Below are positions 7,521 to 19,146 of a DNA stretch of 19,146 bases, one piece after another. The notes beneath the pieces are model-generated. The model did not search any database. It saw only the letters and a list, made by a program, of their open reading frames with translations, and was not told the DNA's origin. A program made the translations under genes and the position numbers. How positions within the stretch are numbered: the first letter of the stretch is position 1; every line of letters begins with the position of its first letter. This DNA is from a bacterium (GTDB lineage: Bacteria; Arandabacterota; Arandabacteria; Arandabacterales; JALGWA01). The stretch is from NCBI GenBank assembly GCA_050125095.1, contig JASFEA010000055.1:1-19146 (forward strand), in the 5' to 3' direction.

Positions 7521-7690
7521 GGCGCGACCCGCCCGGCGACCCCATCCTTATGCCCATAAACCAATTAAGCACCCCCGTCGGCACCCCTACCCTCTTAGAC
7601 GCCCGGAAGCCTCCAGAATCTGCTTTTACTCTTGCCCTGTTGATGCTAAGAATAGTCGAGAACCCAGCAGATCAAATTAAGGAGGCCCTG

Positions 7691-8401
7691 ATGAGAAGCA
7701 CGCATTTGCGGGGCAACAGCCTCAAGGTGATCCCCGGGCTGCCCCCTAAGCTGCTTCCGGTAATAGGAGGGGCTGTCCTGGCAGCTCTCTTCCTTCTCTC
7801 CTGCAAACCCGATTCGGGTTTCAACACGGTCAGCGATTACGACCTCGTGGCCACCTTCTACGCTCAGGATGCGGTATTCGACACCCTGAACACCTACGCC
7901 ATCCCCGACACGGTCATGCACTTCCGGGATCCCGACGACACGTCCAGCGATGATATCTCGAGGGAATTCGACGGGCTCCTGCTCGACCTGGTACGTACCA
8001 ATTTCGAGGCACTTGGCTACGAGGAGGAAGCCGACCCCGGCTCGAACCCGCCCGACGTATTCGTAGTAGTGTGGGTTACAACCGCCGAATGGCTCCAGAA
8101 CTCCTCGGAAGACTGGTGGGACATGTGGGGCTGGTATCCCCACTGGCCGCCTGCATGGGGGCCCGGCTGGGTAACGCTCTATCCGCATCCGGTGGAGTAC
8201 TTCTACCGGCCCGGGTCGGTTTTCATCGACATGATCGATGATGTGGAAATCGAAGAAGGTGAGGACCCTTACATTCTGGTTTTATGGGCGGCTTCCGTGA
8301 ACGGCATCCTGATTGACACTTCGGAGGGAGCCCGGCAGAGGCTGACCGACAACATCAACCAGGCCTTTGACCAATCCCCGTACCTGGCAACCGGAGAGTG
8401 A
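7691..8401 (+). CDS. DUF4136-like lipoprotein
   Basis: AAGGAGG RBS before ATG 7691, lipobox LLS-C, DYDLVATFY..F..TYAIPD, Trp/Gly/Pro-rich segment, Y.PGSVFIDMID, INQAFDQSPYL. Family assigned by recalled pattern. Confidence 0.78.
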   Translation: MRSTHLRGNSLKVIPGLPPKLLPVIGGAVLAALFLLSCKPDSGFNTVSDYDLVATFYAQDAVFDTLNTYAIPDTVMHFRDPDDTSSDDISREFDGLLLDLVRTNFEALGYEEEADPGSNPPDVFVVVWVTTAEWLQNSSEDWWDMWGWYPHWPPAWGPGWVTLYPHPVEYFYRPGSVFIDMIDDVEIEEGEDPYILVLWAASVNGILIDTSEGARQRLTDNINQAFDQSPYLATGE

Positions 8402-8433
8402 CCGGTCGTGAAAACGAGAGGAGGAAAACCGGC

Positions 8434-9030
8434 ATGAAATGGGCGATTGTCGCATGCGCCGTCGTGATGTGCCTGTCTGCTCCCGCTCTTGCCGCGACCG
8501 GCATCGGCGGCTTCACGTATGACATTGCGCTTCCCACCGGCGACACCAAGGACTATGCCGACAACACGAGCTTCAGGGGCTTCGGCGTGGAGGCCAGATG
8601 GTTCAGGAGCAAACACACCGCCATTGGATTCACCTGGCACTGGAACGTGTTCCACCAGCAGCTGACCGGCACATATGAAGTCGACAACGGCCACGTAACC
8701 GGCCACCAGTTCCACCGCATTTATTCCTCACCCGTTCTCCTCACATATTACCTCCAGTGGGGGGACGCCAAATACAGCAAGGGCACGCTCTACTACGTCG
8801 GGCTCGGGGCCGGGGCCTACTGGATGGAAAAGAGGCTGGAAGTGGGAACGGGAATCCACCAGACTACCAACTGGCACGTGGGGCTCTGCCCCGAGCTCGG
8901 CTTTTACTACGGGCTCAGTTTCAACGCCTATCTCAACATCTCGGCCAGGTACAATTACGCATTCAGGTCGGGGGACAGCACGAGCCAGTCGTACTTCTGC
9001 ATGTGCCTGGGAATCGCCTGGGCCAGGTAG
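8434..9030 (+). CDS. Outer-membrane beta-barrel protein (OmpA/OmpW-like small barrel)
   Basis: GAGGAGG RBS before ATG 8434, signal peptide ending ALA-A, alternating aromatic/Gly strands (GFGVEARWF, YYVGLGAGAY, LNISARYNYAF, LGIAW). Confidence 0.8.
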   Translation: MKWAIVACAVVMCLSAPALAATGIGGFTYDIALPTGDTKDYADNTSFRGFGVEARWFRSKHTAIGFTWHWNVFHQQLTGTYEVDNGHVTGHQFHRIYSSPVLLTYYLQWGDAKYSKGTLYYVGLGAGAYWMEKRLEVGTGIHQTTNWHVGLCPELGFYYGLSFNAYLNISARYNYAFRSGDSTSQSYFCMCLGIAWAR

Positions 9031-9076
9031 AAGCGGGATACCACATCGAATCAACGGGGCGTAGGGTGGAGAGACT

Positions 9077-10387
9077 ATGAGTAACAAGACACCGAATGGA
9101 ATCCAGGGCCCGCCTGGCTTCCACGTTATGGCCAAGCCCGTGGGCCCTGTCTGTAACCTCCGCTGCGAATACTGCTTCTATCTCGAGAAAGAAGCTCTCT
9201 TTCCGGACGGCGAGAAGTACAGGATGTCGGATGAGGTACTCGAGGCTTACATCAGGAAGAACATCGCCTCGCAGGACCCGCGCGTCCCCGAGATTCTCTT
9301 CGCATGGCAGGGCGGCGAGCCCACTATGCTGGGAGTCGATTTCTTCAGGAAGGCCGTAGACCTGGAGCGCAAGTACGCGCCGCGCGGAAAGGCCATAGTC
9401 AACACCTTCCAGACAAACGGCACGCTTCTCAATGACGAATGGTGCAGGTTTCTCAAGACGAACAACTTCCTCATCGGCCTCTCCCTCGACGGACCGCGGG
9501 AGATCCACGACAGATACCGGGTCGACCGCAGCGGCGGGCCCACGTTCGACAGGGTCATGCGGGGCCTCGACCTCCTCAAGAGGCACGGAGTGGACTTCAA
9601 TGTCCTTGCCTGCGTCAACGAGGAGAGCTCGGGCCGGCCGCGCGACGTTTACAGGTTCTTAAAGGGCGAGGGCGTCAAGTTCATTCAGTTCATACCCATA
9701 GTGGAGCGCCTGCCAGACCCGCGCGCGGAGGAGCTGGGGCTCGATCTCGCCGTCCCTCCCGCTCTCGACATGGAGGACGCCTGGGACGCCGTGACGCCGT
9801 GGACGGTGCGGCCCGAACACTTTGGCGACTTCATGATAGGGGTCTTCGACGAATGGGTGAGGAACGACGTCGGGGACATGTACGTCATGAACTTCGAGTG
9901 GACCCTCGCGGCATTCGCCGGCCTCCCGGGAGTGGCGTGCTTTTTCATGAACCGGTGCGGGCGCGCGGTCATTATAGAACACAACGGCGATATCTACTCC
10001 TGCGACCACTTCATGTATCCCGACTACAGGCTGGGCAACATACTCACAGACGATCTCGCGCGCATGGTAAACTCCGACAAGCAGGTTGCGTTCGGGGCGC
10101 TCAAGGAAACCACGCTCCCGCGCTACTGCAGGGAGTGCGACGTTCTCTTCGCCTGCCGGGGCGCCTGTCCCAAGCACCGCTTCCTCAAGAGCCCGCACGG
10201 CGAGCCGGGCCTCAATTACCTGTGCGAGGGATACAAGAAATTCTTCAACCATGTACGACCCTATATGAACGTCATGATCCAGCTCATGGAACGCGGCCTG
10301 CCGGCTCACAGGGTAATGGAAGCTCTCAAGGGTCCGATACTGCTTGACCCCGAACACGGCGGTGGTAGAATCTCAATCGGAGAATAG
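9077..10387 (+). CDS. Anaerobic sulfatase maturase (radical SAM/SPASM; anSME/AslB/ChuR family)
   Basis: AKPVGPVCNLRCEYCFYLEK, FAWQGGEPT, QTNGTLL, GLSLDGP..HDRYR, QFIPIVE, EHNGDIYSCDHF, CRECDVLFACRGACPKHR, NYLCEGY. Confidence 0.95.
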   Translation: MSNKTPNGIQGPPGFHVMAKPVGPVCNLRCEYCFYLEKEALFPDGEKYRMSDEVLEAYIRKNIASQDPRVPEILFAWQGGEPTMLGVDFFRKAVDLERKYAPRGKAIVNTFQTNGTLLNDEWCRFLKTNNFLIGLSLDGPREIHDRYRVDRSGGPTFDRVMRGLDLLKRHGVDFNVLACVNEESSGRPRDVYRFLKGEGVKFIQFIPIVERLPDPRAEELGLDLAVPPALDMEDAWDAVTPWTVRPEHFGDFMIGVFDEWVRNDVGDMYVMNFEWTLAAFAGLPGVACFFMNRCGRAVIIEHNGDIYSCDHFMYPDYRLGNILTDDLARMVNSDKQVAFGALKETTLPRYCRECDVLFACRGACPKHRFLKSPHGEPGLNYLCEGYKKFFNHVRPYMNVMIQLMERGLPAHRVMEALKGPILLDPEHGGGRISIGE

Positions 10388-10439
10388 AGGCAAGCGCCGG
10401 CGAAGCCCCTGCCGGAAGGTCCAGCACACGGAGGTCATC

Positions 10440-10988
10440 ATGAACAAACCAATCCTGCTCTTTATCGCTGTCATCCTGTCCTTAACTGCGCTCGCGCACG
10501 GTGAGGAAGCCGCGGCACCCGCTTACAGCGAGGAACCGTTTCAGCTGGCGCTCTGGTCGCCCCTTGCGGCCCGCCCGGACGATGTGGGTATCACGATCTT
10601 CAGGCTGAACCTGATCTACGGGCGCAATGTGTCAATCAAGGGGCTCGACCTCGGCATAGCCAATCACTGCACGGGCGGCGTGAGCAAAGCCTGGCAGGTC
10701 GGCATCATCAACTCCTGCGAGGGCGATTTCATCGGGTGGCAGGACGGCTGGGTGGTGAACTACACCTCGGGTAAGTTCATCGGCTTCCAGTCGGGCATAT
10801 ACAATGACGCCGAGGAGGCAGAGGCCTTCCAGTGGGGGATCATCAACAGGGCCGGCAAGATTAGCGGTTTCCAGCTGGGATTCGTCAACTGGTGCGAGAG
10901 CATGTACGGCCTGCAGATCGGCCTCGCCAACTACATCGCAAGCAAAGAGACGCTGCCCTTCTTCGTATTTGTCAACTGGTCGTTTTAG
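10440..10988 (+). CDS. Secreted/outer-membrane protein with G-x-Q-x-G-x-x-N repeats (LA_2272/VC2662-like)
   Basis: GGAGG RBS before ATG 10440, signal peptide AHG-E, repeats GLDLGIAN, AWQVGIIN, GFQSGIYN, AFQWGIIN, GFQLGFVN, GLQIGLAN, and C-terminal VFVNWSF. Confidence 0.8.
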   Translation: MNKPILLFIAVILSLTALAHGEEAAAPAYSEEPFQLALWSPLAARPDDVGITIFRLNLIYGRNVSIKGLDLGIANHCTGGVSKAWQVGIINSCEGDFIGWQDGWVVNYTSGKFIGFQSGIYNDAEEAEAFQWGIINRAGKISGFQLGFVNWCESMYGLQIGLANYIASKETLPFFVFVNWSF

Positions 10989-11011
10989 GGGTCAGGTCTG
11001 GAAATGCACAA
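10983..11011 (+). repeat. Dispersed copy of the REP-like repeat
   Basis: TTTTAGGGGTCAGGTCTGGAAATGCACAA matches 7453-7481 at 27/29 positions. Confidence 0.85.
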
Positions 11012-11900
11012 TCGCCTCAGGGCCCTCGCCCTAATCATCCTGATCGCCCTTGCCGCGGGCTGCGGCGAGCGCGAGCGGCAGCCGGACGGGAAGGTACATG
11101 AATCTCCCCCGAAGACTCGGGCTGCGACCCCCGGCGCGCCCGTCGCCTATGACTGGACCCCCGACAGAATAGACCGCAAGCTGCTGCAGACCAATCCGGG
11201 GTACAAGGGTGAGGCCCTCTACCAGATACAGGACGGGCAGGTGGTCGCGCTGCACCTGAGCGGCACCACAATCACCAGAATGCCGTTTCTTAAGGAAATG
11301 GGAGTTCAGGCGCTTGACCTGAGGGGGATCCCACTGGCCGACCTGGAGCAGCTCAGAGGGCTCGACCTGGTTGAGCTCTACCTGGAGGACACGGATATCA
11401 GGGACCTGGAACCCCTCAGGGGAATGCCGCTCCGGCAGCTCTATCTTTCAAACACTTATGTCACCGACCTCAGTCCGCTCGAGGGCATGCCGCTCGAGCA
11501 GCTTAACCTCCTGGGGACGGACGTGGAGGACATATCCCCTCTTGCGGGCATGCCCCTCGTGTTCCTGTGGCTCAACCAGACTCCGGTCTCAGACATCTCC
11601 CCGCTATCGACTTGCGGGCGCCTCATGAGCCTAACCCTGCACCGAACCGGGGTGAGCGACCTCAGCCCGCTGGCGGGCACGGGCCTTCTGAGGCTTCACG
11701 TGGGCGAGACGCCCGTCACGGATCTTTCGCCTATCCGCGACCTTAAACTCAAGCGGCTCATCTTCACCCCGGATAACATCAGGAAGGGTCTCGACATCGC
11801 CCGGGGTATGGAGTCCCTGGAGGAAGTGGGCACGACATTCGAGAACCGTATGCCCGCCGCTGTCTTCTGGCACCTTTACGACACCGGAGATCTTCCTTAG
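11004..11900 (+). CDS. Leucine-rich-repeat lipoprotein
   Basis: Lipobox LAAG-C and about 8 repeats of roughly 21 aa, LxxLxLxxTxVxDLSPLxGMP. Confidence 0.88.
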   Translation: MHNRLRALALIILIALAAGCGERERQPDGKVHESPPKTRAATPGAPVAYDWTPDRIDRKLLQTNPGYKGEALYQIQDGQVVALHLSGTTITRMPFLKEMGVQALDLRGIPLADLEQLRGLDLVELYLEDTDIRDLEPLRGMPLRQLYLSNTYVTDLSPLEGMPLEQLNLLGTDVEDISPLAGMPLVFLWLNQTPVSDISPLSTCGRLMSLTLHRTGVSDLSPLAGTGLLRLHVGETPVTDLSPIRDLKLKRLIFTPDNIRKGLDIARGMESLEEVGTTFENRMPAAVFWHLYDTGDLP

Positions 11901-11910
11901 TCGCGATGCA

Positions 11911-11943
11911 CCGAGGTGGACCCGGGCCGCCGAGGTGGACCCG
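11911..11943 (+). repeat. 14-bp direct repeat CCGAGGTGGACCCG x2
   Basis: Exact copies at 11911-11924 and 11930-11943, just after the LRR stop codon. Confidence 0.8.
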
Positions 11944-11989
11944 CAGCATCCCGATGAGCCGTCCGCGCGCCCGGCCCGGTTTTTTCTTT
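11922..11989 (+). terminator. Possible intrinsic terminator
   Basis: CCGGGCCG (11922-11929) can pair with CGGCCCGG (11972-11979), followed by TTTTTTCTTT. The loop is unusually long. Confidence 0.4.
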
Positions 11990-12015
11990 ACCATCGCCTC
12001 AATGCCGGGTATTAT
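11987..12015 (+). promoter_or_regulatory. Sigma70-type promoter TTTACC-N17-TATTAT
   Basis: Near-consensus hexamers with a 17-nt spacer upstream of the DUF481 gene. Confidence 0.45.
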
Positions 12016-12025
12016 GCTTTGATTG

Positions 12026-13084
12026 ATGGGAACATCACGCTGCCATGACAGGTATAATTGCCGCCTCGCCATGCTTTTTCTTGCCGTGGCGACCTTCCTG
12101 GCCGGCCCCGCGCCCGCCACAGCAGCCCGAACCGACGTAGTGATACTGCGGAACGGTGACCACATAACGGGCGAGATAAAGAGCCTGAGTTACGGAAAGC
12201 TCGAATACAAGACGGACGACATGAGCACCATCTATGTCGAATGGGAAAAGATCCACCATATCACGAGCGTGCACAGGTTCGAGGTGGTGGACACCGAAGG
12301 GCTCAGGCGCTGGGGATCACTGGAGAGAACCGACGTTCCGCAGGAGGTAATCATTATGACCTCTGTGGGACCGGACACGCTGCCCCTGCTTGACGTCGTT
12401 CGTCTGACTCGCATAAAGGAGACCTTCTGGCGCCGCCTCAAGGGCTCTGTCAACATCGGCTTCAGTTACACCCGGGCGACAAAGACAGCCGAGTCGGAGC
12501 TGGGAGGGGATACCAGGTATCGCAGCGAGAAATACAGCGGCAGGGTCTTCTATGACGCCTACATAACCGACCAGGCCGAAGCGCGTACAAGCAGGTACAG
12601 TTTCGGTTTCGACCTGGACAGATTTCTCCGGAAACGTTGGACGCTGGGCGGCGCCGTCGGCCTAGAACACAATGAGGAACTCGGGCTGGACAAACGAGAG
12701 AGCCTTACTGCAACGGGCAGCAACTACCCATATGAGACAAACAGGACAGTGGTCAGAGCATCCGCGGGCATCTCCGGCACCCGGGAGACTTACATCCACA
12801 GCGACAGCACATCCTACAACATGGAAATCCCGCTGACTCTCAGTTATTCGCGTATCCAGTTTCATAATCCTGAAAGCAGCATCGAGCTCGCTGCGGCGCT
12901 CTTCCCCAGTGTTACTACCGAGGGGCGTTACCGCGCGTCCGTGACCGCCCAGATCGACCACGAGATCTATGCCGATCTTTATTTCATGATAAGCTTCTAC
13001 TATGACTATGACAGCAAACCACCCGAGGGCGCGGCCAAGGACGATTACAGGCTGAGCACCGGCATCAAATGGACCTTCGGATAG
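12026..13084 (+). CDS. DUF481 (YdiY-like) outer-membrane beta-barrel with small N-terminal domain
   Basis: Signal peptide ending ATA-A, TDVVILRNGDHITGEIK, W..LKGSVNIGFSY, NEELGLDKR, YYDYDSKPP, terminal GIKWTFG. Start uncertain (12023, 12026 or 12071). Confidence 0.85.
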   Translation: MGTSRCHDRYNCRLAMLFLAVATFLAGPAPATAARTDVVILRNGDHITGEIKSLSYGKLEYKTDDMSTIYVEWEKIHHITSVHRFEVVDTEGLRRWGSLERTDVPQEVIIMTSVGPDTLPLLDVVRLTRIKETFWRRLKGSVNIGFSYTRATKTAESELGGDTRYRSEKYSGRVFYDAYITDQAEARTSRYSFGFDLDRFLRKRWTLGGAVGLEHNEELGLDKRESLTATGSNYPYETNRTVVRASAGISGTRETYIHSDSTSYNMEIPLTLSYSRIQFHNPESSIELAAALFPSVTTEGRYRASVTAQIDHEIYADLYFMISFYYDYDSKPPEGAAKDDYRLSTGIKWTFG

Positions 13085-15469: not shown

Positions 15470-16210
15470 TTGGCCAAGAACTACATGGTCTTGTATGGCA
15501 AGAACCCGGTTCTCGAGCGGCTGAGGGCAAACCCTGCGTCGGTCAGGAAGGTCTTCCTGGCCGACAAGTTCAATGAACCCGAAGTCTTGAGGCTGATCGA
15601 GGAGCGCGGGATCGAGGTAGAGAGGCTCTCGGCGGAGGATCTCGCTAAGAAGAGGCCGGCCAAGGACATGCAGGGAATCTACGCCAAGATAGACAGGTTC
15701 CGGTACGCCGACTTCGACGGCCTGATTGACAGAGACGAAACTGTGAAGCCGACGCTTGTCTTTCTTGACCGCGTGAACGATCCCCACAACCTGGGCGTCA
15801 TACTCCGCACCACGGCCTGCTTCGGCGGATTCGCGGTCGTCATACCCGAACACGAGGCCTGCGAGGTCACCGAGACGGTCCTGCACGTTGCGTCGGGCGG
15901 CGAGAACTACACGCCCGTATCGAGGGTGACCAACATCTCGAAGGCCATTGAGAAAGCCAAGACCTCAGGCTACTGGATTGTGGGCGCGGTGGTCGATGAG
16001 GGCGCGCGGAATCTCATTGATACCGACCTTCCGTTTCCCATGGGGCTCGTGCTCGGCTCGGAGGGCTCCGGCATAAGGCCGGGTATTCGCAAGCACCTCG
16101 ATATGGAGGTGTTTATACCCATGAAAGGGGCCCGGCTCTCTCTCAATGTCAACATCGCATGCGCCATCTTCTGCCACGAGATCGCCCGTCAGATCGCAGG
16201 GGCCGCTTAA
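15470..16210 (+). CDS. rlmB: 23S rRNA Gm2251-type 2'-O-methyltransferase (TrmH/SpoU family)
   Basis: LYGKNPVLE, QGIYA, LDRVNDPHNLGVILRT, VASGG, LVLGSEGSGI, IPMKG..SLNV; TTG start after AAGGAG. Confidence 0.85.
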   Translation: MAKNYMVLYGKNPVLERLRANPASVRKVFLADKFNEPEVLRLIEERGIEVERLSAEDLAKKRPAKDMQGIYAKIDRFRYADFDGLIDRDETVKPTLVFLDRVNDPHNLGVILRTTACFGGFAVVIPEHEACEVTETVLHVASGGENYTPVSRVTNISKAIEKAKTSGYWIVGAVVDEGARNLIDTDLPFPMGLVLGSEGSGIRPGIRKHLDMEVFIPMKGARLSLNVNIACAIFCHEIARQIAGAA

Positions 16211-16234: not shown

Positions 16235-17656
16235 CTAGCGCGCGGGGCGCTCCACCGTGAAGAGGCTGTCGAGACGCATCTGGAAAAAGGCCCGCCCCGC
16301 GGCTTCCACCCCTTCGCTGTTTACCAGCTCACGGACAAGCGCCGGTATGTCGCGCCGCAGCCTGACGGTGACCTCATCGCCTCCCGCGCCGGCGAATCTG
16401 GCCCACGCGGGCTCGGGCGCCTTCGCAACCATGATATTGCCTTTGCCGAGCGTGCAGCCGCTTCCGATCTGTACGCCGTCAATGAGGCATGACCTGGGTG
16501 TTTCCAGAGGCGAATGCACCTGCGCCGAGACGCCGAAATGCCCTTCGGACCCTAGCTCGCTGAGGGCCAACCTGGCCATGCGATATCCGATCACCACATA
16601 CGGACCAAGATGCCCGTGAAACGCCCTTAGCAGTGTCTCTGCAGGCACCTCGGGCGCGAGGCTTGGAGCATGCCGCTGGACGGGACCATATGCGTACAGG
16701 CGGCGGAGCGCATTCAGGGCGCCTTCGGTGTCGACCAGTCTTGCGACGGATATATTCCCGGACGATGAAGGGGTCAGCACAAACGTGCCCGTGTCGGTCT
16801 TCTCGGCCTCGTAGGTCCGGCTATCGAAGCCCAGCAACTCATCGCGCAGGAAGCCTATCGCCGCCATTTCATCATACAGCATGACATGGGGGGACCTGTC
16901 ACCGAGGCTTCCGACGAGCTGCTCCATATAGAGCACCGGGGAAGACTCGCCCTCAAGAGAAGACAGGAAATCGATGCCGTCGAGGCCCTCGGCCCCCGAG
17001 ATGTCTATGATGACCACCCGGGGTGCGGAGGTGAGCACCATTTCCGACGCCTCAATGTCGAAGGTGAGGTTGAAGCCGGAAAGGGCGCCTTCGGCCAACA
17101 CCGAGGGGATATAGACCGTCTCTATGTGACGGAAACCGTGCGGATCCCCGATTGCCAGCGCCATTAGATTGCTTAGAGGCCCGAGGGCCAGATACTGGAG
17201 GCCGGGATTGTTTTCGGCGAGGGCGCCCAGACTCCCGGGGGTGAATTGCATCGCCTCACTATTCCTCGGAGGTGGAAAAACGGCTCCTCCCAGGCTGTTC
17301 GCGGTCTGTCGCCAGGGCGGGGCGTCTAGGCCGGCCCGCCTGCTGCCCATTATGACCGGGATCGAATTCGACCGGCTGGCTTCCAGAAGACCGATGAGGT
17401 TATCGGTACCCTTTCCAAGGGCAGCAGAGCCTTCCACCGTAACGAAAGCCTCGATATGCAGGGTGGAATCCGCGAGCAGGGCGAAAACGGCCCGGACGTC
17501 ATCGAGTCCCATGTCGGTATCGACTACTACATGCCTCCGGGTTTCCAGTTCATGCTCAGTATGAGCGTGGCAGGCAGCTACCTGAAGCGCTGAGAGCGCA
17601 AGCAGAACCACGAGCGCCCTGCCGCATGTGCACATCGTTATTCGTCTGGACCTCAT
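16235..17656 (-). CDS. Exported fusion: inosine/uridine nucleoside-hydrolase-fold domain plus C-terminal FmdE domain
   Basis: CAGGAGG RBS before ATG 17656, signal-peptide-like N-terminus, VVVDTDMGLDD, LGPLSN, FNLTFD, LYDE (nucleoside hydrolase); FHGHLGPYVVIGYRM, SCLIDGVQIGSGCTLGKGNI (FmdE). Confidence 0.88.
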   Translation of the reverse strand: MRSRRITMCTCGRALVVLLALSALQVAACHAHTEHELETRRHVVVDTDMGLDDVRAVFALLADSTLHIEAFVTVEGSAALGKGTDNLIGLLEASRSNSIPVIMGSRRAGLDAPPWRQTANSLGGAVFPPPRNSEAMQFTPGSLGALAENNPGLQYLALGPLSNLMALAIGDPHGFRHIETVYIPSVLAEGALSGFNLTFDIEASEMVLTSAPRVVIIDISGAEGLDGIDFLSSLEGESSPVLYMEQLVGSLGDRSPHVMLYDEMAAIGFLRDELLGFDSRTYEAEKTDTGTFVLTPSSSGNISVARLVDTEGALNALRRLYAYGPVQRHAPSLAPEVPAETLLRAFHGHLGPYVVIGYRMARLALSELGSEGHFGVSAQVHSPLETPRSCLIDGVQIGSGCTLGKGNIMVAKAPEPAWARFAGAGGDEVTVRLRRDIPALVRELVNSEGVEAAGRAFFQMRLDSLFTVERPAR

Positions 17657-17742
17657 GCGCGACCTCCTGGCTTTCCAATTCTGCAATCGCGTAAATGCCC
17701 AGTGCCGGGGCGTCGGCGCAGGCATTTCAACGTCTCGGGACC

Positions 17743-19146
17743 CTACTGCGTTTCCATCCGGGCGGTCAAAAACACCGTCCGGCCGGGCATGGGATACCCC
17801 GGCTGGAAGCAGTAGTCTTCATCCGTCAGATTCTCTATTTCCAGAGATAATTCAATCGGCGCCCCCGTGAAGTCGGCAAGCGGGAATCCCACGCCCGCGT
17901 TGGCGACGAAATATCCCGGCAGCATCTCCATATCAAGTAACTCCCCCTCCCCGCTCCGCGCATTGTAGGCGTATTGCCGGGCCACATATTCAAGGTCGAG
18001 AGTAAGACGCAGCCATGTCATGGGCTCGAAGTTGGCCCCGGCGGAGCCCGAGAACTCCGGCGAGCGGGGTGTTTTCTCCATGGCGGGGTCGAGCAGCGTA
18101 AGCGCGGCGTAGAGTGAGATGCCCCTTCGCATATCGATCGCCGCGGAGATCTCGAATCCGGTGACTTCGTATTCACGAACGTTTACCAGACCGGCCGGGG
18201 TCCACTGCATGAGATTGTCGGCCCGGTCGCTGAATACGGACGCCTGCAGCCTCAAACCGGCGCCCCATGAAGCATTCACACCGGCTTCAACATGGTCGAG
18301 CACCTCCGCCTCGAGGCTGTCCACCGTGGATGAGGCAACACCGAGCGAGTAGACACCCGGATAAGAGATACCCCTCGAATAGGCGGCAAAAGCCGTGTAG
18401 TCGCGCCACTTGAATATAAGTCCCGCATGCGGAGCCGACTCGGAGGCGAACCTGGAGTGATTGTAGTATCGCAATCCCACGGACGGAACGACAGAACTCT
18501 TGCCCAGGGCCACCTTGTATCGGGCTGCCAGCGCGGGCGCCACCGTGGTGAAACGCCCCTCGTACTCGAAAGGTACATAGCCGGATATGGTCGTATTACG
18601 GAACTCGCCGCCCTCATCCTCAGCCTCGAGCCCGATCGTAACACCCAGGTCCCCCAGGAGGATGTCCTCCGAACCGCGGAATCCATAGTTGTTCCAGTCG
18701 GTATCCGAGTTGCCGGCGGGGCTTTCGGGGCCGCTGATATGGTCCTTCTCCCAGCGAATCCTCCCTTCCTCATAGTAGAGAACGGCATAGCCGCTGAGGC
18801 CGACCCCTTCATGGTCGAGCCTTATGTTGTGGGTGAGGGTATTGGTCGCGAACCTGTCGCGCTCGGGCGTCGGCCCGTCGGCATGACCAGGATCGCGGCT
18901 CCAGTTGTCTGTATATTGAAGCGTATAACCCAGGTGGAGGCCCTCGCGCGCATCGGCCCCGAGCCGCAAATAGAGCGAGCCTGTCTTACCGTCTGCGTGG
19001 GGGCGGTGCCCATCGGACGCCTTGTAGCTTCCCCCCAGATAGTAGTCCAGCCCCCCGGCCTTCCCGCCATGGCGAAGCACGCCTCCTTTAGAATCATACT
19101 CGCCCAGGACGAGCTCGAAAGAGGTCTCATAGCCGGGCTGGACTCG
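17743..19146 (-). CDS. TonB-dependent outer-membrane receptor, partial (plug and 5' end beyond window edge)
   Basis: The frame stays open from 19080 to the window edge. Long run of beta strands, GLRY, LEAE..EAG, and the C-terminal IENLTDEDY..GYPMPGRT motif typical of TonB receptors. Confidence 0.92.
   Translation of the reverse strand, partial: RVQPGYETSFELVLGEYDSKGGVLRHGGKAGGLDYYLGGSYKASDGHRPHADGKTGSLYLRLGADAREGLHLGYTLQYTDNWSRDPGHADGPTPERDRFATNTLTHNIRLDHEGVGLSGYAVLYYEEGRIRWEKDHISGPESPAGNSDTDWNNYGFRGSEDILLGDLGVTIGLEAEDEGGEFRNTTISGYVPFEYEGRFTTVAPALAARYKVALGKSSVVPSVGLRYYNHSRFASESAPHAGLIFKWRDYTAFAAYSRGISYPGVYSLGVASSTVDSLEAEVLDHVEAGVNASWGAGLRLQASVFSDRADNLMQWTPAGLVNVREYEVTGFEISAAIDMRRGISLYAALTLLDPAMEKTPRSPEFSGSAGANFEPMTWLRLTLDLEYVARQYAYNARSGEGELLDMEMLPGYFVANAGVGFPLADFTGAPIELSLEIENLTDEDYCFQPGYPMPGRTVFLTARMETQ

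Follow-up and report, generated by a model that had tools for sequence, protein, structure and literature searches.

The window analysed here is an entire contig (C55) of 19,146 bp, at one end of which the truncated gene of a TonB-dependent receptor is followed by the gene of a predicted exported protein that joins an inosine-uridine nucleoside hydrolase (NH) domain to an FmdE domain. With a probability of about 0.6, in our estimate, these two genes close an operon for nickel acquisition that is repressed by NikR and comprises three genes, nikR, the receptor gene and the NH/FmdE fusion gene; the head of the operon would lie beyond the contig end. The NH/FmdE protein probably handles nickel in the periplasm. 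At low nickel, the receptor would carry the metal, free or chelated, over the outer membrane, and the exported two-domain protein would take it up in the periplasm and hand it to an inner-membrane importer. Nickel could be bound by the His-His-Cys(-Cys) site within the FmdE domain and by the N-terminal tail and the linker, which are both rich in His. Gene context and conserved residues suggest that the cargo is nickel, that the FmdE site binds metal and that the protein acts as a relay.

NikR and its predicted operator in related loci

Related loci were collected from GTDB with one genome per species, where 531 stretches encode a relative of the NH/FmdE protein; the best 80 were fetched and represent 78 distinct loci. 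Sequence upstream of the receptor gene is preserved in five of the closest loci (L021, L022, L024 and the metagenome loci L099 and L101), and in each of these nikR, the receptor gene and the fusion gene follow each other in this order on one strand. Their fusion proteins are 54-82% identical to that of the window, with the highest value for L099, which is also syntenic with the window downstream, over rlmB and further genes. The nikR product of L024 (137 aa) matches Pfam NikR_C at 3.5e-30. In L022, from an Eisenbacteria-labelled metagenome-assembled genome, nikR (3-404) has two in-frame TGA codons at positions held by Trp and Arg codons in its relatives; a pseudogene, a sequencing error or recoding could be the cause.

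A 27-bp palindrome was found just upstream of nikR in each of the four closest loci that extend that far. In L099 it reads GTATTACGAAATTGACAATCGTCATAC and overlaps the -10 box TATAGT, which lies behind TTGACA. The palindrome is similar to the E. coli NikR operator, which consists of two GTATGA/TCATAC half-sites. A degenerate palindrome pattern generalised from the closest loci was used to scan 126 fetched loci (1,159,223 bases), and nine matches were observed, whereas 100 block shuffles gave 0.11 on average and never more than 1. Four of these matches precede nikR of the closest loci. Two others, in the divergent spacer between receptor and fusion gene of L049 and in the promoter of a receptor - fusion - CbiM - CbiQ - ABC (ATP-binding cassette) operon of the verrucomicrobial L063, represent predicted NikR operators before receptor/fusion genes in two other lineages. 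The remaining three are located in loci of Thermoplasmatales (L067, L076 and L095), in which nikR lies near a stand-alone fmdE.

Stand-alone FmdE loci, which are mostly archaeal and in most cases show a tblastn identity of 37-43%, carry nikR in the fetched flanks in 17 of 26 cases, and nikR was also found in the flanks of six further metagenome loci. In the Thermoplasmatales locus L084 (6454-11164), nikR stands beside genes for a ZnuA-like binding protein, FmdE (134 aa, without signal peptide), an ABC ATPase, an ABC-3 permease, HypA and a ParA/NUBPL-like ATPase, and the locus has the appearance of a ZnuABC-type nickel importer under NikR control, whose FmdE is cytoplasmic. A looser palindrome scan of the source genome gave 28 matches with at most one half-site mismatch; the three that were inspected (C244, C60 and C94) lie inside long open reading frames (ORFs) and were taken as chance.

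The receptor fragment and its association with the fusion gene

The receptor frame (19146..17743, 467 aa) is open at its 5' end, where the contig ends, and the fusion gene follows it on the minus strand after a gap of 86 nt. Models of TonB-dependent receptors are matched by the frame in their C-terminal barrel part only. The best of them, NCBIfam TonB-siderophor (5.3e-18, model positions 400-647 of 649), stays under its cut-off, and no Pfam match to the fragment was found at E<=0.01. With residues 184-647 of the full-length L099 receptor (650 aa) the fragment shares 86.6% identity; according to this alignment, about 183 N-terminal residues including signal peptide, TonB box and plug are missing. 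When the assembly was searched for the receptor N-terminus by tblastn with three full-length orthologous receptors, the matches were limited to the fragment in the window itself and one unrelated receptor on C98. Plug and barrel Pfam domains are both present in the receptors of L050 and L094, and no NCBIfam equivalog scored above its cut-off for six receptors examined.

For the fusion gene, the longest ORF begins at 17725, and the ATG at 17656 with AGGAGG 6 nt upstream is the likelier start; orthologues start at the equivalent Met. This start yields the 86-nt gap and a product of 473 aa. A first-pass annotation of the contig had described a receptor followed at this distance, on the same strand, by a signal-peptide-bearing protein with IU-NH and FmdE domains, and the arrangement was borne out by the ORFs, the Pfam matches and the ATG at 17656.

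An HMMER search against 1.84 billion representative sequences returned 1862 proteins at E<=0.001, of which 371 remained at E<=1e-10 and 38 at E<=1e-30. Both domains are present in all of the at least 120 homologues listed, whose annotations do not go beyond 'nucleoside hydrolase', 'formylmethanofuran dehydrogenase subunit E', 'FmdE family' or hypothetical. In order to assess receptor linkage, ORFs were called in 50 two-domain loci including the window, and the neighbours were clustered by BLAST. The receptor cluster is directly adjacent to the fusion gene in 25 loci and lies within three genes in seven more, giving 32 of 50. By record title, the loci with an adjacent or nearby receptor belong to Eisenbacteria-like, Krumholzibacteriota, Calditrichia, Latescibacteria, Desulfobacterota, Verrucomicrobiota, Abyssobacteria and Acidobacteriota genomes, and the two genes are arranged either in tandem or divergently. 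As the adjacency is seen in eight or more phylum-level groups and in both orientations, a functional pair is more plausible than synteny by descent, in agreement with the pairing that the first-pass annotation had supposed from the window.

Neighbours of the Usp, Na/sulfate symporter, PAP2, PMT_2, S9 peptidase and Macro families were also considered as functional partners. They are confined to related loci of the Krumholzibacteriota type and were attributed to lineage synteny. Signal-peptide-bearing proteins resembling tetrapyrrole methylases (PF00590) are encoded directly upstream of the fusion gene in five loci (L094:7052-7945, L068:4680-5663, L072:6756-7715, L065:5019-6032 and L069:731-1639), and in P0099/L033 a PF00590 domain is fused to the NH/FmdE protein. 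These proteins retain the GxGPAGP motif. A methylase fold dependent on S-adenosylmethionine (SAM) is odd in the periplasm, and they may have a tetrapyrrole-binding or other role in metal loci.

Predicted export signal and domains of the NH/FmdE protein

The N-terminus of the fusion protein, MRSRR followed by a hydrophobic core and CHA/HTEH, resembles a Sec signal peptide by eye. In an AlphaFold2 model (mean pLDDT 90.4, pTM 0.78) residues 11-29 form a helix that is followed by disorder, with low confidence for residues 29-37. The domain bodies are joined in the order IU_nuc_hydro, linker, FmdE. An alignment of 109 homologues, 37-81% identical to the window protein, was used for all conservation counts given below. 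His immediately follows the small-x-small site in 19 of 22 homologues at >=49% identity, compared to 30 of 109 overall, so this N-terminal His is specific to the clade and no trait of the whole family. The His content amounts to 9.9% in the N-terminal tails and 10.6% in the linker, about four-fold that of the domain bodies (2.5%). At least two linker His residues are present in 85 of 109 homologues; the window protein has one only.

The FmdE domain (PF02663, residues 346-448) was matched at 5.6e-19 with 69 bits over a cut-off of 22.9. Its FHGH (346-349) and SC (389-390) motifs, which had been read as metal ligands in the first-pass annotation, are present and invariant or nearly so: H347, C390 and C401 occur in 109 of 109 homologues and H349 in 108. 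The metal site of 2GLZ is described as His15/His17/Cys19/Cys55 with mixed Zn/Ni occupancy (PMC2954224), and three of these four ligands, His15, His17 and Cys55, align with H347, H349 and C390. At the position of Cys19 the window protein has Gly351, an invariant Gly, and the additional invariant Cys401 aligns with a Cys of 2GVI. Already in 2010 it was noted that most PF02663 genes adjoin metal transporter genes (PMC2954224). The source genome encodes a second FmdE protein (C23, 138 aa), the gene of which is without transporter neighbours.

The NH domain (PF01156, residues 43-312) was matched at 9.3e-21 over nearly the whole model (positions 1-294 of 297; 75.2 bits, cut-off 34.2), so that both Pfam families assigned in the first-pass annotation score above their cut-offs. 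Foldseek searches with the predicted model returned plant and protozoan nucleoside hydrolases as best matches (E 4e-16, target TM 0.75-0.79), although the identity to solved nucleoside hydrolases is 12-21% only. The calcium/ribose motif DxDxxxDD is present as D46-T-D48-M-G-L-D52-D53. For the remaining active-site residues the numbering of the C. fasciculata enzyme is used. Asn168 and Asp242 are ribose and calcium ligands, Glu166 is the ligand of the ribose 5'-OH and the position before Asp242 (His241) holds the leaving-group residue, of His, Trp or Cys class. The equivalents of Asn168 and Asp242 were placed by HMMER alignment to 4KPO and are N196 and D262. All 109 homologues conserve D48, D52, D53, N196 and D262, and 108 of them conserve D46. 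The equivalent of Glu166 is lost: position 194 is Gly in the window protein, and among the homologues G (42), D (23), A (20), S (12) and C (7) occur there. The His241 position is Tyr261 in the window protein and Y (69), F (17), H (15), C (6) or S (2) in the homologues, i.e. aromatic or His in 101 of 109. The models of RihA, RihC and UriH gave 19-37 bits for the fusion protein against cut-offs of 382-450.

Judged by these residues, the hydrolase site is not decayed. Since the conserved active site exceeds what docking or a scaffold would need, a step that binds or cleaves a ribosyl group is a live possibility. The neighbourhoods point to no substrate. The 25 most frequent neighbour families on each side include no gene for ribose or base utilisation.

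Nickel markers, nickel demand and riboswitches

Two further markers of nickel metabolism accompany the fusion gene. CbiM/CbiQ genes lie directly 3' of it in L063 and L088, and a DUF4198 gene stands beside it in six loci of the Desulfobacterota type. DUF4198 has been shown by experiment to be a secreted nickel binder with a dissociation constant of 18 nM, encoded next to TonB receptors and NikR (PMC12537917). The source genome (3.35 Mb, 268 contigs, 60% G+C, 91% complete) has three matches to large subunits of [NiFe]-hydrogenase together with HypA.

Rfam was scanned at gathering thresholds, and no riboswitch was detected upstream of any receptor in 20 related loci; there was no match of any kind in the window, L099 or L101. 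The matches obtained elsewhere in the scanned loci were a cobalamin element near the fusion gene of L058, an nhaA-I element in L059 and a 16S rRNA gene in L073. The cobalamin riboswitch of L058 (16330-16526, 66 bits) lies downstream of an acidobacterial cluster of fusion gene, nikR and receptor gene, at a distance of about 7 kb. The first-pass annotation had suggested that the pair imports and then processes a metal- or nucleotide-containing molecule, with a corrinoid lower-ligand riboside or a pterin among the examples. Its general idea is supported as far as an exported protein and a metal-related cargo are concerned. The two examples are not, as cobalamin, Moco and NiCo riboswitches were absent upstream of the receptors and the regulator in the relatives is NikR; with this protein as regulator, nickel is indicated rather than a corrinoid or pterin.

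Alternative explanations

Several observations weigh against a NikR-repressed nickel operon with the NH/FmdE protein as a relay. nikR and its operator would lie off the contig and are not visible in the window, and nikR was not detected in the 91%-complete source assembly by tblastn or by the NikR_C profile. Likewise, the inner-membrane nickel transporters CbiM, NicO and HupE/UreJ were not found in the source genome. In a survey of 52 two-domain loci (the 50 used for receptor linkage, L099 and L101), a nickel marker, i.e. nikR, the operator, DUF4198 or CbiM, was present in 16 and none in 36. The loci of the Krumholzibacteriota type have no nickel marker in their flanks, their neighbours being Usp, Na/sulfate symporter, PAP2, PMT_2 and S9 peptidase genes. 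No receptor was found within 7 kb in 18 of the 50 two-domain loci, eight of which have full 8-kb flanks on both sides. The site of 2GLZ is described as occupied mostly by zinc, and the protein had been purified on nickel resin (PMC2954224). Finally, the invariant hydrolase active site would be left unexplained by a pure metal relay.

This last point is accommodated by the strongest rival, which we regard as unlikely. Here, the receptor would import nickel on a ribosylated ligand, either a nickelophore or a scavenged cofactor, the hydrolase would cut the N-glycosidic bond and the nickel would pass to the FmdE site. The release of iron from ferric siderophores by esterases offers a parallel. The nearly unbroken conservation of the DxDxxxDD motif and of the Asn168 and Asp242 equivalents across the 109 homologues, the prevalence of an aromatic residue or His at the His241 position and the match of the model to a complete nucleoside hydrolase fold speak for such a reaction, as does the constancy of the two-domain fusion in every homologue listed. 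In addition, the groove of FmdE has been described as fit for a fairly large ligand (PMC2954224). Against this stand the loss of the Glu166 equivalent, mostly to G, D, A or S, and the lack of ribose- or base-utilisation genes among the commonest neighbour families. Transporters of the CbiMNQO type, as encoded beside the fusion gene in L063 and L088, take the free ion, and we know of no ribosylated nickelophore. Moreover, stand-alone FmdE serves archaeal nickel operons without any hydrolase. In a more specific form, slightly less likely again, the protein would be a two-step machine in which an active periplasmic N-ribohydrolase destroys a ribose-bearing nickel carrier imported by the receptor, such as an undescribed nickelophore or a scavenged nickel cofactor, e.g. 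a nickel-pincer nucleotide, and the fused FmdE domain catches the freed nickel. If this is true, the first 'metallophore-cracking' enzyme for nickel would have been found, and with it a hint at a new class of nickel chelators.

Salvage of corrinoids or other metallo-tetrapyrroles, in which the receptor would import a cobalt or nickel tetrapyrrole and the fusion protein would remove a riboside part, e.g. the lower-ligand nucleoside, is improbable. The exported PF00590 proteins directly upstream in Desulfobacterota-type loci (six of 118 scanned upstream ORFs match, and the domain is fused in P0099/L033) would fit this explanation, and so would the cobalamin riboswitch about 7 kb from the L058 fusion gene and the weak, sub-threshold matches of receptors to BtuB models. 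CbiM-type transporters, too, serve cobalt as well as nickel. However, no receptor reaches the BtuB cut-offs, cobalamin riboswitches are missing upstream of the receptors in the 20 loci scanned as well as from the window, L099 and L101, and the clade of the window has no methylase-like neighbour and has NikR as its regulator.

Plain periplasmic scavenging of nucleosides taken in by the receptor, with base and ribose freed by the hydrolase and FmdE as a structural or zinc-binding appendage without relation to nickel, appears more improbable still. It would account for the apparently intact hydrolase site, but nikR and the operator head the operon in the closest relatives, the metal ligands of FmdE are invariant, no ribokinase, ribose transporter or nucleobase transporter occurs among the commonest neighbours and the RihA, RihC and UriH scores are far under their cut-offs. 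Least probable of all is the acquisition of another metal (zinc, cobalt or iron) in the source organism with a NikR link limited to its relatives, for which nikR missing from the source assembly, the mainly zinc-occupied site of 2GLZ (PMC2954224) and the ZnuA-type binding proteins accompanying archaeal FmdE genes can be cited, whereas the syntenic, 82%-identical L099 has nikR and operator, the contig simply ends within the receptor gene and the assembly is 91% complete in 268 contigs.

Relation to known systems

TonB-dependent import of nickel under repression by NikR is already known; what is new is an undescribed and widespread periplasmic component. FrpB4 and FecA3 of H. pylori are NikR-repressed TonB-dependent nickel transporters, and the proposed operon would be like them in the type of receptor, the NikR operator (in relatives) and the need of nickel for [NiFe] hydrogenase. 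CntO, NikH and Daro_3944 are further reported Ni(II) receptors (PMC11247825). For none of these five receptors has a periplasmic NH/FmdE partner been described, and the proposed operon also differs from them in having nikR as the first gene of the same operon in the relatives. Literature searches found no paper on the NH/FmdE architecture or on a periplasmic NH/FmdE partner, which agrees with the first-pass remark that the architecture is without a characterised function.

Another parallel is DUF4198 (IsDUF4198, PMC12537917), which is likewise exported, has TonB receptor and NikR neighbours and occurs beside the fusion gene in the six loci mentioned above. In that protein a His becomes the mature N-terminus, and metal transfer rather than catalysis has been proposed (PMC12537917); in the NH/FmdE family the corresponding His is clade-specific, and the folds are unrelated. 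FmdE and nucleoside hydrolase have 0 occurrences in the main text of PMC12537917.

Compared to known FmdE/FwdE proteins (PF02663; 2GLZ, 2GVI and 3D00), the NH/FmdE protein shares their core domain (E 3e-6 to 2.5e-3 for the three chains) and keeps FHGH and Cys at three of the four ligand positions, but it is predicted to be exported, is fused to a hydrolase, has no C-terminal zinc finger, has Gly in place of Cys19 and carries the extra C401. Genes of formylmethanofuran dehydrogenase operons were not detected in Pfam scans of the window. With RihA/B/C, the IU-NH of C. fasciculata and the plant enzymes (NRh), it shares the fold, the DxDxxxDD motif and the Asn168 and Asp242 equivalents; it differs from these nucleoside hydrolases by its predicted periplasmic location, the lost Glu166, Tyr, Phe or His at the His241 position and the constant fusion to FmdE.

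The periplasmic passage of nickel and its chemical form after TonB-dependent import are poorly known outside Helicobacter, and the NH/FmdE protein is a conserved, widespread and confidently foldable candidate for this step. In the source organism, [NiFe] hydrogenases are present and three common families of inner-membrane nickel transporters were not found. If the proposed operon is real, the long-unexplained FmdE domain would gain a concrete role in nickel handling, and the possibility is raised that a nucleoside hydrolase active site has been recruited into metal acquisition.

Organization of the window

The features at the receptor end of the window are compiled in Table 1. The convergent rlmB gene marks the 3' boundary of the operon and is found 3' of the fusion gene in L099 and L021 as well. 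In the spacer between receptor and fusion gene, neither a promoter-like site nor, on the minus strand, a terminator-like one was found. The inverted repeat of the spacer consists of 7-bp arms with a 21-nt loop and no T-run behind it; it is possibly an element of mRNA processing or stability.

Table 1. Coordinates of the predicted operon and the adjacent gene in the window (total length 19,146 bp).
Feature	Position	Strand	Basis or remark
TonB-dependent receptor, C-terminal 467 codons (beta-barrel part)	17743..19146	-	5' end lost at contig end
Intergenic spacer, 86 nt	17657..17742	-	Shine-Dalgarno AGGAGG 17663-17668; inverted repeat AAATGCC...GGCATTT 17693-17727
IU-nucleoside-hydrolase / FmdE fusion, 473 aa, exported (predicted)	16235..17656 (stop codon included)	-	Pfam
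Signal peptide (predicted), residues 1-31, MRSRR...CHA	17564..17656	-	Sequence features by eye; model helix
Mature N-terminus (predicted) HTEH, His1 and His4	17552..17563	-	His after small-x-small site
IU-nucleoside-hydrolase fold domain, residues 43-312	16721..17530	-	PF01156; DTDMGLDD at 17498-17521
Interdomain linker, His-enriched across the family, residues 323-345	16622..16690	-	Composition over 109 homologues
FmdE domain, residues 346-448	16313..16621	-	PF02663; FHGH 16610-16621, Cys390 16487-16489, Cys401 16454-16456
rlmB, 23S rRNA 2'-O-methyltransferase	15470..16210	+	TIGR00186 RlmB, 172.9 bits, cut-off 160

Elsewhere in the window, a run of envelope-type genes is located on the plus strand (7550-13084) around a radical SAM/SPASM protein (9077-10387). 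It encodes a DUF4136 protein, an outer-membrane beta-barrel protein, a leucine-rich repeat protein, a DUF481 protein and an unknown ORF of 214 aa, and several ORFs of this run are matched by size and order in the syntenic L099.

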